A stretch of DNA of 64,000 bases. It comes from an uncultured Lentisphaerales bacterium (GTDB lineage: Bacteria > Verrucomicrobiota > Lentisphaeria > JABSQK01 > UBA12247). The translations under genes were made by a program, and so were the position numbers. The notes beneath the pieces were generated by a model, which saw only the letters and a program-made list of their open reading frames with translations, ran no database searches and was not told the DNA's origin. The stretch spans positions 1 to 64,000 of the forward strand of contig CALSSJ010000004.1 in NCBI GenBank assembly GCA_943788985.1, written 5' to 3'. Below, one piece after another: positions 45,747 to 51,650 of this stretch (position 1 is its first letter; every line of letters begins with the position of its first letter).

Positions 45747-46289
45747 ATGACCTTGCGTTGGGAGGCGGCTGACTTGCTGACACAGCAGGATATCGGTGTG
45801 ATCGTACCGTCTAAGCTGAATCCAGGGCCGCTGACCACACGGATCACTTTCTTCGCGCCGGTCTGCCTGCTCTTCTTCTTCATCTTGGTACTCACGATCA
45901 ATATCGTGTATGCCGTGCCGATTCACCCCATGCACTATCTCTTTGTGACTGCCGGCTTTTTCTCGTTTCACCTCCTCTTGGCCTACCTGGTGGATCTGCT
46001 GAACATCCATCTTGCCTTCGGTATCGCCGCGCTGGTTTCGGTAGGCTTGGTGACAAGCTATCTGCGGAGTGCATTGGGCGGGCGCTTTCCGATGCGCGCA
46101 GCGATTGGAGGACAGCTTTTCTTCTTGGTGCTCTTCTCCTACACCTTCTTTATCGACGGAATGACTGGCCTGACCGTGGCGATTGGCTCCGTGATCACGC
46201 TGGCGGTCCTGATGCGAGTCACTGCGCACACGGACTGGGAGGGGCTTTTTCAGCGCCCAAAAACGGCGAGCACATCCGCCCAGTGCTGA
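45747..46289 (+). pseudogene. CreD-like inner membrane protein, C-terminal part only
   Basis: IHPMHYLF..FFSFHLLLAY, FSYTFF..G.TGL; N-terminal region absent. Confidence 0.6.
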
Positions 46290-46815: not shown

Positions 46816-47836
46816 TCAGGCCGTGGGCTCGGCGGCCTCTTCTTGGCTCTTAGCGCCTTTGCGCTTGGTGCAGGCGAAGACGATCCCGCCGATGACGCTC
46901 CAGATGACCATGGCACCGGTTCCGAGCAATGGCAGCAATGCGGACTTCGCAGGCTCGACGTTGCAGTCGGTGAAGATCGCGTTGAACACCGCGTCGCGAA
47001 TTCCAAGCCCACCGGGCACCACGGGGATGCTGGCAATGGCATTGGCCACCTGCGTGGTCAGGAAATACAGGTTTGCCCCGACATTTTCGATATGGAGGCC
47101 CTGGCCAATAGCCATGTAGGAGATCGCGAGGCTACCGTGCACCAGCACAGACAGCGCAATGACGGCAGCGATCGCGCTGCGACGTTCACGATAGAGGTCA
47201 AGCGCTGCCACCAGACGGCCAAACACCGCGCACACCGAGTCAGGCAGCAACCGCTGCGCGAGATTGATCAGACTGCGGATTCCCGGCAGGCGCTCTAGCG
47301 CGACGTGGAATTCAAGCGCGAGCAGCCCCCACAACACCGCAGCCACTCAGGGCTGCGATCCAGTACACGGCCACGCGAATCCTTGGATCCTGGGAGGCCT
47401 GAACATAGTCCCACGAGATTGCCGTCGACACCAACGCGATCAACAACAGCCCCAGCAATCCCATCACCCGGTCCAGCATGATCGTAAGCACCGCAGCCGC
47501 CTGTTTGCTCCCGGCGTGATCACGGATGTAGACCATCTTGACCAAGTCTCCGCTGACAGAGCCCGGAATCGCGATGTTAAAGAACTGGCCGATCAGATTA
47601 AGCTTCACGATATCCATGATCCGCGTCTCGATCCCCTGCACCGCCAGCAGGATGCGCCAGCGAAACACGCCAATGAGCAGCACCCAGCCATAGAGGACGA
47701 CCGCTAACGCTACCCAGAGCCAGTTGACCCCGTCGAGAGACTCAGGCTTGATTTCCTTCACCAGCGGACGGATCAGCAATCCGGCCAAACCAAAGGCAAT
47801 TCCGAATCGCAAAACGGCGTAAATAAATCGTGTCAT
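46816..47836 (-). CDS. Lysylphosphatidylglycerol synthase TM-domain (UPF0104 flippase-like) protein; frameshift ~47330
   Basis: RWRILL, IGQFFN..PGS.SGD.VK, DRVMGL, IP..PGGLG.RD. Confidence 0.85.
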
Positions 47837-47872
47837 AAACAGCGGTCAATTAGGGGTTTGTGGATTTAGCAA

Positions 47873-47902
47873 TTGACAAGGGGGAAGCGGTCTCATATAT
47901 GT
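47873..47902 (+). promoter_or_regulatory. Possible sigma70 promoter upstream of the sigma gene
   Basis: Perfect TTGACA at 47873-78 and an AT-rich CATATATG ~17 bp downstream; the -10 match is weak. Confidence 0.3.
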
Positions 47903-47973
47903 CTTTTCTGGGGATCGTGCCCGCTCCCACCACATTATCAACGCTCTAGGCCCAGAAGGCGGAACTGTATCGC

Positions 47974-49182
47974 GTGAATGACCCGATGAAAGCCTACATG
48001 CAGGAGATTAACGAGGTACCGTTGATCACTCGCGAGGAAGAAGTCGAGTTGGCGGCGCTGATTAAAGGCGGCAGCCACGAGGCGAAGAATAAACTGATTC
48101 AGGCAAATCTTAGGCTGGTGGTAAAGATTGCCCATGACTTCAAGGGGCTCGGTCTGCCGCTGCTGGATTTGATCTCTGAGGGAAACATCGGCCTCGTGCG
48201 CGCGGCGGAAAAGTTCGACCCAGAAAAAGGCGCAAAGTTCAGTAGCTACTCAGCTTGGTGGATTAAGCAGTCAATGCGGCGAGCATTGTCGCAGAAGAGT
48301 CGAACCATCCGCATTCCGGTAGCATCCGCAAGTCGCGTTCACAAAATCCGCACGGCCAAGATCGAGCTGGCAGAAAAGCTGGGCCGACTTCCGACTGACG
48401 GTGAGATAGCGCTCCGTTTGGATCTGACGCTGCGCACCGTGGCGGGGTTGAAGATGGCCGACCTGCGGACGTTTTCGTTGCAGGATCAGATCCAACGCGG
48501 CGAGGCAGGAAGCTTCGAGGATTTGATCGCCGACACCAACGCTGTGACGCCAGACAAACGGATGGCCCAAGCAGAGTCTCTGGACCGCATGCGAAGCCTG
48601 CTGCACCTGCTGGATGAGCGCGAGCAGACCATCCTCACCTACCGATTTGGGCTTAATCATCATCCGCGCAAGACCTTGGAAGAAGTGAGCGAACTCATCG
48701 GACGCACACGGGAACGGGTGCGACAGATTCAGATTCAGGCGCTGCGCAAGATGCGTAAGCTAATCGAGGACGATGGTCCAGACTGGGATAATAGCGCCGA
48801 GGATGACGAGGACGAAATCCCCGGAATTCCTGCATTGTCGACGAATAATGGTGAGGTGCCGTGGGACAACAGGCGCTTGCTCGGCTATGAGTCTAAAGAG
48901 CTGTACTTCGACCCCACACCGATCACCAAGCTCGGCCTCTCCACGCGCGCCTCAAACGCGATGCGGAATGCGGGTCTGCGCACAGTCGCGCAGTTGGTCT
49001 ACAAAAGTGAAGGCGAGTTGATGCACCTGCGGGCCTTTGGCGATCGCTGCCTCACTGAGGTCAGGGATGCGCTGCAGATACGTCTTAAAGAGCTATTGGA
49101 AGCGGAAACAGCCGAAGCGGATGTGGGAACAGCCCAACTGGGGGAGGCAGCGGAAGCGGAGCTGGAGGCAGCGGCAGAGTGA
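47974..49182 (+). CDS. RpoD/SigA-family sigma factor (regions 1.2-4, no 1.1) with C-terminal RNAP alpha-CTD-like domain
   Basis: NLRLVVKIA, DLISEGNIGL, KFSSYSAWWIKQ, TRERVRQIQ; then PITKLGLSTRASNAM...FGDRCLTEVRDAL. Confidence 0.9.
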   Translation: MNDPMKAYMQEINEVPLITREEEVELAALIKGGSHEAKNKLIQANLRLVVKIAHDFKGLGLPLLDLISEGNIGLVRAAEKFDPEKGAKFSSYSAWWIKQSMRRALSQKSRTIRIPVASASRVHKIRTAKIELAEKLGRLPTDGEIALRLDLTLRTVAGLKMADLRTFSLQDQIQRGEAGSFEDLIADTNAVTPDKRMAQAESLDRMRSLLHLLDEREQTILTYRFGLNHHPRKTLEEVSELIGRTRERVRQIQIQALRKMRKLIEDDGPDWDNSAEDDEDEIPGIPALSTNNGEVPWDNRRLLGYESKELYFDPTPITKLGLSTRASNAMRNAGLRTVAQLVYKSEGELMHLRAFGDRCLTEVRDALQIRLKELLEAETAEADVGTAQLGEAAEAELEAAAE

Positions 49183-50180
49183 CGGAGCGTTGTTCGTACG
49201 CGGCGCGCTACATCAACCGTGGGCAAGTGAGCGCAAGCGCGACGGCGTTTGCCCCGGCAAACATTGCCCTGTGCAAATACTGGGGGAAGCGGAACCGGAC
49301 GCTAAACTTGCCGCTCACGTCAAGCCTGTCCGTGTCTCTAGGAACGCATGGCACCACCACCACCATCGAGTTTTCCGAGCACGATACGCTGACTCTGAAC
49401 GAGAAGCAGATCGGGCTGGAGTCGACCAATGCCTCGGCTAGGGCCTTCGCTGAGCGACTCTGGGAATACATCGACCTGTTCCGGGAGCCCGGCGAGTGCC
49501 TGGCCGTTCGCACGAGCAACACCATTCCTACCGCTGCCGGTCTGGCGTCGTCCGCATCAGGCTTTGCCGCTTGCACCAAGGCGCTAAACGATCTGTTCGG
49601 CTGGCAGGCAGATGATGCTGCGCTTTCGCGCCTGGCACGACTGGGAAGCGGCAGCGCCTGCCGCTCACTTTGGCACGGGTTTGCTCGCTGGAACGCAGGA
49701 GTGCGCGAGGATGGCGACGATTGTTATGCCGAGCCATTCGGCTCAGATTGGCCCGATCTGCGTCTCGCAGTCTGCCCCGTCGACACCAGCCAGAAGCCGG
49801 TTTCGTCCCGCGACGCGATGAACGCGACTGTGGCCAATAGCCCACTTTTCCGGGGCTGGGAAGCCTGCGTCACGCGCGACCTGTGCGCGATCGAGACATC
49901 GATTATTAACCAGGATTTTGAGCGATTGGGCAAGACCGCGGAGCGCAACGCGCTGGCGATGCATGCGACCATGCTTGGCTGCGAGACACCGATTCTTTAC
50001 TGGTTGCCAGCCACGGTGGACGCCATCCACCAAGCTGCGCGCCTTCGCGCGGACGGGATACCGATCTATGTGACGATCGATGCTGGCCCCAACCCCAAGT
50101 TGCTGTATCAACAACAGCACGAGGCCGTGATCGCCGCGCAATGGCCCGACGCGATGCTGATTACGCCCTGGTCGGCGTAG
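49179..50180 (+). CDS. mvaD: Diphosphomevalonate decarboxylase
   Basis: NIALCKYWGK, PTAAGLASSASG, GSGSACRS, TIDAGPN. Confidence 0.95.
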   Translation: MTERCSYAARYINRGQVSASATAFAPANIALCKYWGKRNRTLNLPLTSSLSVSLGTHGTTTTIEFSEHDTLTLNEKQIGLESTNASARAFAERLWEYIDLFREPGECLAVRTSNTIPTAAGLASSASGFAACTKALNDLFGWQADDAALSRLARLGSGSACRSLWHGFARWNAGVREDGDDCYAEPFGSDWPDLRLAVCPVDTSQKPVSSRDAMNATVANSPLFRGWEACVTRDLCAIETSIINQDFERLGKTAERNALAMHATMLGCETPILYWLPATVDAIHQAARLRADGIPIYVTIDAGPNPKLLYQQQHEAVIAAQWPDAMLITPWSA

Positions 50181-50849: not shown

Positions 50850-51650
50850 TGGCGCGTGAGTTCAGTCGGCGTTCCCGTGCCGCTTGCAGAGCCCGGTCAC
50901 GTCGGTCATGAATCTCCTGTGCCTGCCCAGCAAGCATATCGTATGGGGCGATTTATCCCAGCGCGCTGGGTAGGCGGTCCTCGTTGTAAGTGCGAACGTA
51001 TTGGGCCGTATTTTCACGGGCCTGCTTGAAGTTAAAAGGGGGGCGTGGCCGAATACTCTCGCGCTTGATGGTACCGTGAAAGGGCTCGAGTTTGCCGTTG
51101 CTTTGCGGGTAGTACGGCGATGTACGTACATGCTTCATGCCGCTGATGCGAATGAACTCCTTGAAGTCGCGCGCAATGAACTGCGGGCCATTGTCGGAGA
51201 TGGTACGTGGAAAATACCCCGCACAGCGTTCCCGACCTCACTGCAGAATCGTCTCGACGTCTCCCTCGGGCATCGTCTCGCGGATCTCCCAATGAACAAG
51301 AGAGCGGCTGTAGCCACCGAGTATGCGGCACAGGCAGTAGAAGCTGCCCGCAATATTCAAGTAGCTGATGCCAATATCCCGGTGCTGGTGTGCTGCGGTT
51401 GGCTGGTGGAAGCCTGTGCCCTTCTTGGAGGGCTTACGGCGCCCAACTCCTCAGTGCGTCAGCCTGCTTCAGTGTGCAATAGACCATTGCGGGGCTGGCG
51501 GCGACGATGCCATCATGTACGTGCACCGCCGATAGCCGTGGTTCGGATGTCGTACGATCGCCTCGCGCTCCCAGTCTTATCATTCTGGTGGCCGTTACGG
51601 TTCTTCTAGGTGTAGAACTTCGAGCGTTGCTGCCCCAGTCCAGCAACAAG
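50850..51650 (-). mobile_element. Degenerate IS3-family transposase (integrase core)
   Basis: ISDNGPQFIARDFKEFIR, SPYYPQSNGKLE, YNEDRL.SALG; stops, frameshifts and D-to-G changes. Confidence 0.85.

Follow-up and report, generated by a model that had tools for sequence, protein, structure and literature searches.

Organization of the locus

Positions 47974-49182 on the forward strand of the stretch of DNA analyzed here (the window, 64,000 nucleotides) form a single open frame of 402 codons with no internal stops. Pfam identified sigma-70 domains and a C-terminal domain like that of the RNA polymerase alpha subunit (alpha-CTD) on this one frame, which bore out the architecture proposed when the window was read from its sequence alone. 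The features of the gene and its flanks are listed below.

47873..47901, forward strand: candidate promoter found by eye (TTGACA, 17 nt, TATATG), about 70 nt upstream of the gene
47974..49182, forward strand: whole fused sigma gene, 402 aa from GTG 47974, stop TGA at 49180-49182
47980..48072, forward strand: sigma-70 region 1.2, residues 3-33 (Pfam PF00140, Sigma70_r1_2, E 5.1e-11)
48094..48306, forward strand: sigma-70 region 2, residues 41-111 (Pfam PF04542, E 5.1e-19), with the -10 reading helix WWIKQSMRRAL
48340..48558, forward strand: sigma-70 region 3, residues 123-195 (Pfam PF04539, E 4e-13)
48601..48759, forward strand: sigma-70 region 4, residues 210-262 (Pfam PF04545, E 7.9e-13), with the -35 reading helix IGRTRERVRQIQ
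48760..48903, forward strand: acidic linker, residues 263-310, with a semi-conserved LGY..EL stretch at its CTD end
48904..49077, forward strand: alpha-CTD-like helix-hairpin-helix (HhH) domain, residues 311-368 (RNA_pol_A_CTD, PF03118)
49078..49179, forward strand: Ala/Glu-rich helical tail, residues 369-402, not conserved among relatives (alignment, AlphaFold model)
49179..50180, forward strand: diphosphomevalonate decarboxylase gene (Pfam MVD-like_N, E 6e-47), whose GTG start overlaps the sigma stop by 4 nt

All four Sigma70 Pfam models (r1_2, r2, r3 and r4) scored above their cut-offs. Region 1.1 is absent, as the protein begins at region 1.2 and Pfam gave no Sigma70_r1_1 match, and Pfam likewise detected no RpoA N-terminal dimerization and core-assembly domain (PF01000/PF01193) in the fused sigma. 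In the AlphaFold model of the whole protein the sigma body was confidently predicted, linker residues 268-291 had pLDDT values below 50 and are predicted to be disordered, and the C-terminal domain had values above 90. The Foldseek matches of this full-length model were sigma A and sigma S chains. The protein contains all the strings quoted in the sequence-only reading: TRERVRQIQ...ALRKMR (region 4.2), DWDNSAEDDEDE (the acidic linker) and DPTPITKLGLSTRASNAMRNAGLRTVAQLVYKSEGELMHLRAFGDRCLTEVRDAL (the CTD-like stretch). Together, the Pfam, NCBIfam, PDB, AlphaFold and Foldseek results showed the observation made in that reading to be correct in every detail that could be checked.

The gene has three candidate start codons, CTG 47965, GTG 47974 and ATG 47986. 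Its relatives begin with an ATG in the context M-Y-x-x-N-D-P-M-K, at which point the window has CTG 47965, and that codon is preceded by the purine-rich AGAAGGCGGA. The uncertainty over the start leaves the finding unaffected. A consensus promoter scan of 47700-49400 returned no sites, the candidate at 47873..47901 falling below its threshold.

The neighbors of the gene differ between relatives, and a conserved operon partner was therefore rejected. The diphosphomevalonate decarboxylase gene is not conserved next to the sigma gene in the relatives at loci L083-L085 and L003; relatives of family f2 have a convergent downstream gene that by eye is ketopantoate-reductase-like, and the relative at L003 has an ORF of 957 aa downstream. 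The lack of a conserved neighbor fits a general transcription factor better than a component of a dedicated module.

An LPG_synthase_TM-like gene upstream (46816-47836, reverse strand) is split into two overlapping ORFs, of which 47312-47836 corresponds to profile positions 3-161 and 46816-47346 to positions 192-296; this may reflect a frameshift, a pseudogene or an assembly error. A 180-aa ORF at 45747-46289 on the forward strand matched CreD in its C-terminal third alone (profile positions 279-428 of 428) and may be truncated or mis-started. A short ORF at 50953-51138 on the reverse strand contains ...YYPQSNGKLE..., which we take to resemble the C-terminal part of an integrase-core (rve) transposase and to point to an IS remnant some 1.8 kb downstream of the fused sigma.

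Integrity of the fusion

Two studies distinct from the likely source each have a DNA contig that contains the stretch 47900-49250 in one piece, with 2 and 3 substitutions relative to the window and no insertions or deletions, and the gene was intact in independent marine and estuary assemblies. The junction between the sigma body and the appended domain (48760-48910), on whose continuity the original proposal depended, was unbroken in these independent DNA assemblies. Contigs from the RNA-library run X14 covered 29 of 30 bins, contig presence being no proof of transcription; none of them alone bridges 48760-48910, where the pieces are 48458-48839 and 48831-49017. The contigs of a second RNA-library run, X17, covered only 48053-48674.

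The same architecture was found in database proteins, as 60 of the best 120 protein clusters (P0002-P0061) combined PF03118 with four sigma domains. An alignment of 19 fused proteins (A1) showed a highly conserved sigma body, a linker that is hypervariable in both length and sequence, and a conserved C-terminal domain. The linker is approximately 45-110 residues in these relatives, which is longer than that of alpha. A conserved body and a conserved CTD on either side of a variable linker is the pattern of a functional fusion, not of an assembly error. That the fusion is an artefact (a misassembly, a missed stop or a frameshift) or a decaying gene has next to no probability: the draft genome, in 48 contigs, is 83.6% complete, and the LPG-synthase-like gene upstream appears split, but the artefact reading is refuted by the single indel-free contigs that span the entire gene in two other studies, by the conservation of the CTD beside a hypervariable linker, and by an architecture common to 60 clusters and to all 15 sampled genomes of the order (see below).

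Distribution of the fused sigma

Genomes were surveyed with a profile of the C-terminal domain (A2, an alignment of 17 sequences), for which the phylum sample comprised 401 genomes. Each of the 15 sampled genomes of the window's order, which represent five families and 11 genera and include the window's own genome, had exactly two matches to this profile, one copy of the fused sigma and rpoA. The fused-sigma match scored 76-107 bits and lay in an open frame of approximately 390-437 aa (205 aa in one genome), and the second, rpoA-type match scored 47-59 bits. The profile gave no second alpha-CTD match in any of 129 genomes from other orders of the same class, and a weak second match in 4 of 267 genomes from other classes of the phylum. 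Two of these four proteins have an N-terminal alpha-CTD followed by Sigma70_r4 (Pfam) and the other two end in a similar C-terminal tail; none of the four resembles a full sigma factor. The fused sigma was thus found in no sampled genome of the phylum outside the window's order. Among the best 80 relatives that the A1 search found in genome contigs, only 4 extended through the CTD, and the remainder, which are mostly from Victivallales, stop at about residue 268. The closest named records are uncultured Lentisphaeria, one of them labelled Verrucomicrobia. These data indicated that the fusion is no isolated case and that an entire order of marine Lentisphaeria has conserved it.

Beyond the phylum the survey consisted of word-based searches, which can miss distant fusions. 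With residues 300-372 as the query, only the protein's own cluster was returned, the word index being coarse for a short divergent domain, and a search of the protein-cluster atlas returned ordinary sigma clusters only. A search of protein representatives with the CTD profile was dominated by proteins with multiple alpha-CTD repeats and was unusable for counting sigma fusions.

The same search matched 21,132 representatives at E <=0.001, and many proteins (P0122-P0270, 180-2200 aa) had 2-12 tandem alpha-CTD-like stretches. The alpha-CTD-like domain is far commoner than RpoA alone.

Sigma class and paralogues

The best NCBIfam matches of the protein were to RpoS and RpoD models, with which residues 2-270 align nearly end to end. 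The scores were below the equivalog cut-offs for both, at 261.1 bits for the RpoS model TIGR02394 (cut-off 378.7) and 226-234 bits for the RpoD models (cut-offs 555-572). With no region 1.1 and a score under the RpoD cut-off, the protein falls outside group 1 (housekeeping RpoD); it is a primary-like (group 1/2 type) sigma-70 without region 1.1. Source databases name its relatives "RNA polymerase primary sigma factor" or "sigma-70 family".

The sigma factor sets of five genomes of the order were compared by their core identity to the window sigma.

Fused sigma: 68-71% core identity, 5 of 5 genomes
Short unfused paralogue (own contig C22): 64-67%, 5 of 5 genomes
Second short paralogue (own contig C10): 56-60%, 4 of 5 genomes, with only a 141-aa fragment at 60% in genome G070
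Longer sigma with an N-terminal extension (own contig C26): 36-42%, 5 of 5 genomes

The order, as seen in these five genomes, keeps four primary-like sigmas, the fused, C22, C10 and C26 types.

The relationships between these proteins were examined in a quick IQ-TREE analysis of 265 core columns and 57 rows, from which neither the root nor the order of events was inferred. The rows were 17 sequences from the five genomes, and every third entry in each of the ranges P0003-P0061 and P0062-P0121; loci L135, L137, L138 and L142 and the fragment L140 were left out. All 25 fused rows fell into one clade (SH-aLRT 98), which also contained P0062, a protein of 316 aa that has the linker and is without the CTD. 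This fused clade was in an unresolved fork with the C22-type clade and the C10-type rows. The C22-type clade includes both short (274-327 aa) and long (412-579 aa) RpoD/SigA-type proteins from other Lentisphaeria. The tree fits a putative duplication followed by a single acquisition of the CTD.

The fused and C22-type clades are closely similar in the sigma core. At a conservation of at least 80%, 157 of 265 core positions were identical in the two clades and 15 were fixed differences, and regions 2.4 and 4.2 were identical between the fused and the unfused C22-type clades. The -10 and -35 elements are read by Y430, W433, W434 and Q437 and by R584, E585, R586, R588 and Q589, respectively, and in an alignment to E. 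coli RpoD the equivalents of all of these residues were kept, with no difference between the fused sigma and its short unfused paralogues. Relative to E. coli RpoD, the window sigma has R in place of T440 and A/S in place of H455/E458. The position aligned with R603 is E265 in the window sigma and E in 16, D in 2 and N in 1 of the 19 fused proteins; it is acidic in the C22-type, H in the C10-type and R in the long C26-type sigmas. The long C26-type keeps T440 and R603 as in E. coli sigma70, and the short sigmas have R440. Since the fused sigma shares its reading helices with the unfused paralogue, the CTD that it carries in addition is the main feature that could give it a distinct promoter preference or strength.

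Fold and conserved residues of the alpha-CTD-like domain

The assignment of the C-terminal domain was supported by both sequence and structure comparisons. The RNA_pol_A_CTD model matched residues 311-368 with 56.9 bits (gathering score 23.8, E 1.8e-15). A sequence search of the PDB with the last 100 residues returned 51 alpha-subunit chains and 3 weak, unrelated chains with E >0.3. The C-terminal 67 residues folded alone in AF2 with a pLDDT of 95.8, and all 47 Foldseek matches listed for this isolated domain were RNA polymerase alpha chains, 43 of the 47 having TMq values of 0.71-0.82 and rmsd values of 0.5-1.5 A, including 3K4G, 1LB2 and 3N97. The HhH alpha-CTD fold claimed from the sequence was thereby confirmed by the PF03118 match and by superposition of the AF2 model on solved alpha-CTDs.

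To compare individual residues, 17 family members were aligned to the RpoA of E. coli K-12 and of the host. The correspondences that the sequence-only reading had given for the window protein all held: R325 aligns with R265, N328 with N268, G356 with G296, R358 with K298 (K to R) and C359 with S299 (S to C). The state of each position in the family, by E. coli alpha numbering, was as follows.

R265 equivalent: R in 17 of 17
N268 equivalent: N in 17 of 17
G296 equivalent: G in 17 of 17
K298 equivalent: K in 16 of 17, R in 1 of 17 (the window protein)
S299 equivalent: Cys in 17 of 17
C269 equivalent: G, S, A or R in the 17 members
N294 equivalent: Y, A, S or F in the 17 members
P293 equivalent: R in 17 of 17
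L295 equivalent: F in 17 of 17
D259 equivalent: acidic in 4 of 17 (E in 3, D in 1)
E261 equivalent: E in 1 of 17, K in 6 of 17, R in 1 of 17

R265, N268, G296 and K298 of the alpha-CTD contact UP DNA, and these four (R, N, G and K/R) are what the family keeps of the six-residue UP-element contact set R265, N268, C269, G296, K298 and S299. The replacement of S299 by Cys, of C269 by G, S, A or R and of N294 by Y, A, S or F means that the DNA-contact surface of the fused CTD is altered. In E. coli, D259 and E261 form the acidic pair of alpha that contacts R603 of sigma70. This acidic "261 determinant", through which the E. coli alpha-CTD contacts sigma region 4, is not kept in the fused CTD.

The host has its own RpoA of 346 aa, encoded on contig C32 adjoining rpsD. 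This protein retains R265, N268, C269, G296, K298 and S299 in the alignment to E. coli RpoA, with E at both 259 and 261, so that the canonical CTD expected of the host rpoA is indeed in place. Over 52 residues, the fused CTD and the alpha-CTD of the host share 38% identity.

Possible roles of the appended domain

Based on its position and residues, we give about even chances to the fused CTD being a sigma-specific, tethered reader of upstream DNA. The fused sigma would have arisen through duplication of a short RpoD/SigA-type sigma of Lentisphaeria, followed in one copy by the addition of an alpha-subunit C-terminal domain behind region 4.2, with a flexible acidic linker in between. When a holoenzyme is on a promoter, its region 4 covers the -35 element and the alpha-CTD binds the minor groove immediately upstream; a CTD tethered to region 4 would therefore be kept at a high local concentration on that upstream DNA. 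The equivalents of R265, N268, G296 and K298 would there bind the minor groove or backbone, as the alpha-CTD does at UP elements, and through the tethered domain, promoters that have a suitable upstream element would be bound with higher affinity or selected. We infer the DNA binding, the placement upstream of the -35 element and the effect on promoter choice from the position of the domain and the conservation of its residues. The occurrence of an alpha-CTD together with sigma region 4 in other architectures (described below) suggests that the two modules work side by side. Against a role as an upstream reader, the DNA-contact surface is altered at the S299, C269 and N294 positions, the acidic 261 determinant is lost, the locus has no conserved neighbor, and P0062 belongs to the fused clade and has the linker but no CTD. 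In addition, another CTD could be superfluous beside the two canonical alpha-CTDs of the host, or could be in competition with them.

A more specific possibility, which we consider rather doubtful, is that the CTD is a charge-swapped partner dedicated to its own region 4. At the position of E. coli sigma70 R603, which meets E261 of alpha, the short sigmas carry E or D, and with E at 259 and 261 the host alpha would be repelled from such a sigma. The fused CTD is without the acidic patch and often has K or R at the E261 position. It would then occupy the promoter-proximal UP subsite next to the -35 element, and that subsite would be unavailable to the host alpha-CTD in the holoenzyme with the fused sigma. 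The charges at the R603 and E261 positions suggest that the fused domain may be adapted to sit beside its own region 4. If such a charge swap is real, there would be a sigma-specific promoter class among paralogues that read identical -10 and -35 hexamers, and a holoenzyme with three CTD-type DNA readers.

We also regard as unlikely, though still to be weighed, that the appended alpha-CTD is mainly a protein-docking module for class I type activators or Spx-like factors, by which regulators would be recruited to, or diverted from, the fused-sigma holoenzyme. The alpha-CTD is the usual contact point for activators, solved alpha-CTD complexes with Spx, CAP, RpaA and other proteins were among the fold matches, and the segment aligned to alpha 285-289 keeps a (T/S)xx(E/D)L pattern. 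However, it is the positions of DNA contact (R265, N268, G296 and K298) that are invariant and not those of the activator-contact surface, the residues at 286 and 287 vary greatly, and no candidate partner gene is linked to the locus.

Less probable again, and in our judgment a poor candidate, is an intramolecular regulatory module, in which the acidic linker and CTD would fold back on region 4 or region 2 and mask the DNA binding of free sigma or tune its binding to core. Region 1.1 of primary sigmas masks and tunes in a similar manner, as do the C-terminal extensions of ECF41/42. The fused sigma is missing region 1.1 and its linker is strongly acidic; moreover, with an acidic E265 at the R603 position and a frequently basic residue at the E261 position of the CTD (K in 6 and R in 1 of 17), a contact between sigma region 4 and the CTD would be allowed. 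ECF sigmas with fused C-terminal regulatory domains exist, according to the available part of PMC3426412. Nevertheless, region 1.1 is also missing from the unfused paralogues, which have an acidic tail as well and manage without a CTD, and autoinhibition would not need invariant alpha-CTD DNA-contact residues. Both the docking and the fold-back roles are compatible with DNA binding by the domain.

Comparison with known systems

The fused sigma is a real, conserved and uncharacterized sigma architecture. Full-text literature searches found no description of a sigma factor carrying an alpha-CTD, in agreement with the initial statement that no characterized example was known, and the available portion of the review PMC6524683 treats only the canonical division of labor between sigma and alpha.

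The closest comparison is with the alpha-CTD of RpoA itself. The fused CTD has the same fold (TMq 0.79-0.81 and rmsd 0.8-1.5 A to 3n97_B, 1lb2_E and 3k4g_A) and the equivalents of R265, N268, G296 and K298, and it would adjoin sigma region 4 on DNA as the alpha-CTD does in PDB 3N97. It differs in being attached to sigma and not to the alpha N-terminal domain, in having Cys at S299 and G, S, A or R at C269, in not keeping N294, and in being without the acidic D259/E261 patch, where it is often basic.

Among sigma factors, the group 2 proteins (RpoS and the cyanobacterial group 2 sigmas) share with the fused sigma the presence of regions 1.2 to 4 and the lack of region 1.1; unlike the fused sigma, they are without an alpha-CTD. 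ECF41 and ECF42 belong to the group 4 sigmas and have just regions 2 and 4, whereas the fused sigma has regions 1.2 and 3 as well. The C-terminal extension of ECF41/ECF42 has a SnoaL-like fold and is unrelated to the HhH domain of the fused sigma. What they have in common is a sigma extended past region 4, in ECF41/ECF42 by a domain that modulates activity, as described in the available part of PMC3426412.

Proteins from other Verrucomicrobiota at loci L117 and L119 also combine RNA_pol_A_CTD and Sigma70_r4 in one chain. These proteins (L117:1369-2532 in genome G008 and L119:1429-2508 in genome G050; 360-388 aa, with a C-terminal tail that ends in ...HYR.I...RV.R..Y) are a separate, uncharacterized family. 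PF03118 and PF04545 are likewise combined in P0271-P0277, P0279 and P0280, some of which also have helicase or HARE-HTH domains; P0271, P0273, P0274 and P0276 are proteins of 817-1885 aa with an alpha-CTD, Sigma70_r4 and a helicase (PF00270/PF00271) or HARE-HTH (PF05066) domain. In contrast to the fused sigma, the alpha-CTD is N-terminal to region 4 in the proteins of this kind that were scanned, and they are not close kin of the fused clade. As they are without sigma regions 2 and 3, they are presumably unable to act as sigma factors. Together with the fused sigma, these proteins suggest that an alpha-CTD paired with region 4 is a recurrent evolutionary unit.

In the usual division of labor, sigma recognizes the -10 and -35 elements, and the reading of upstream DNA and the reception of activators fall to the alpha-CTDs. 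A sigma-borne alpha-CTD shifts part of the upstream reading onto an exchangeable subunit, such that the rules of promoter strength or of activator response could switch along with the sigma. Paralogues with the same -10/-35 heads provide a natural test of the selectivity that upstream contact alone can give, and the sigma-borne CTD is a possible part for engineered sigma factors.
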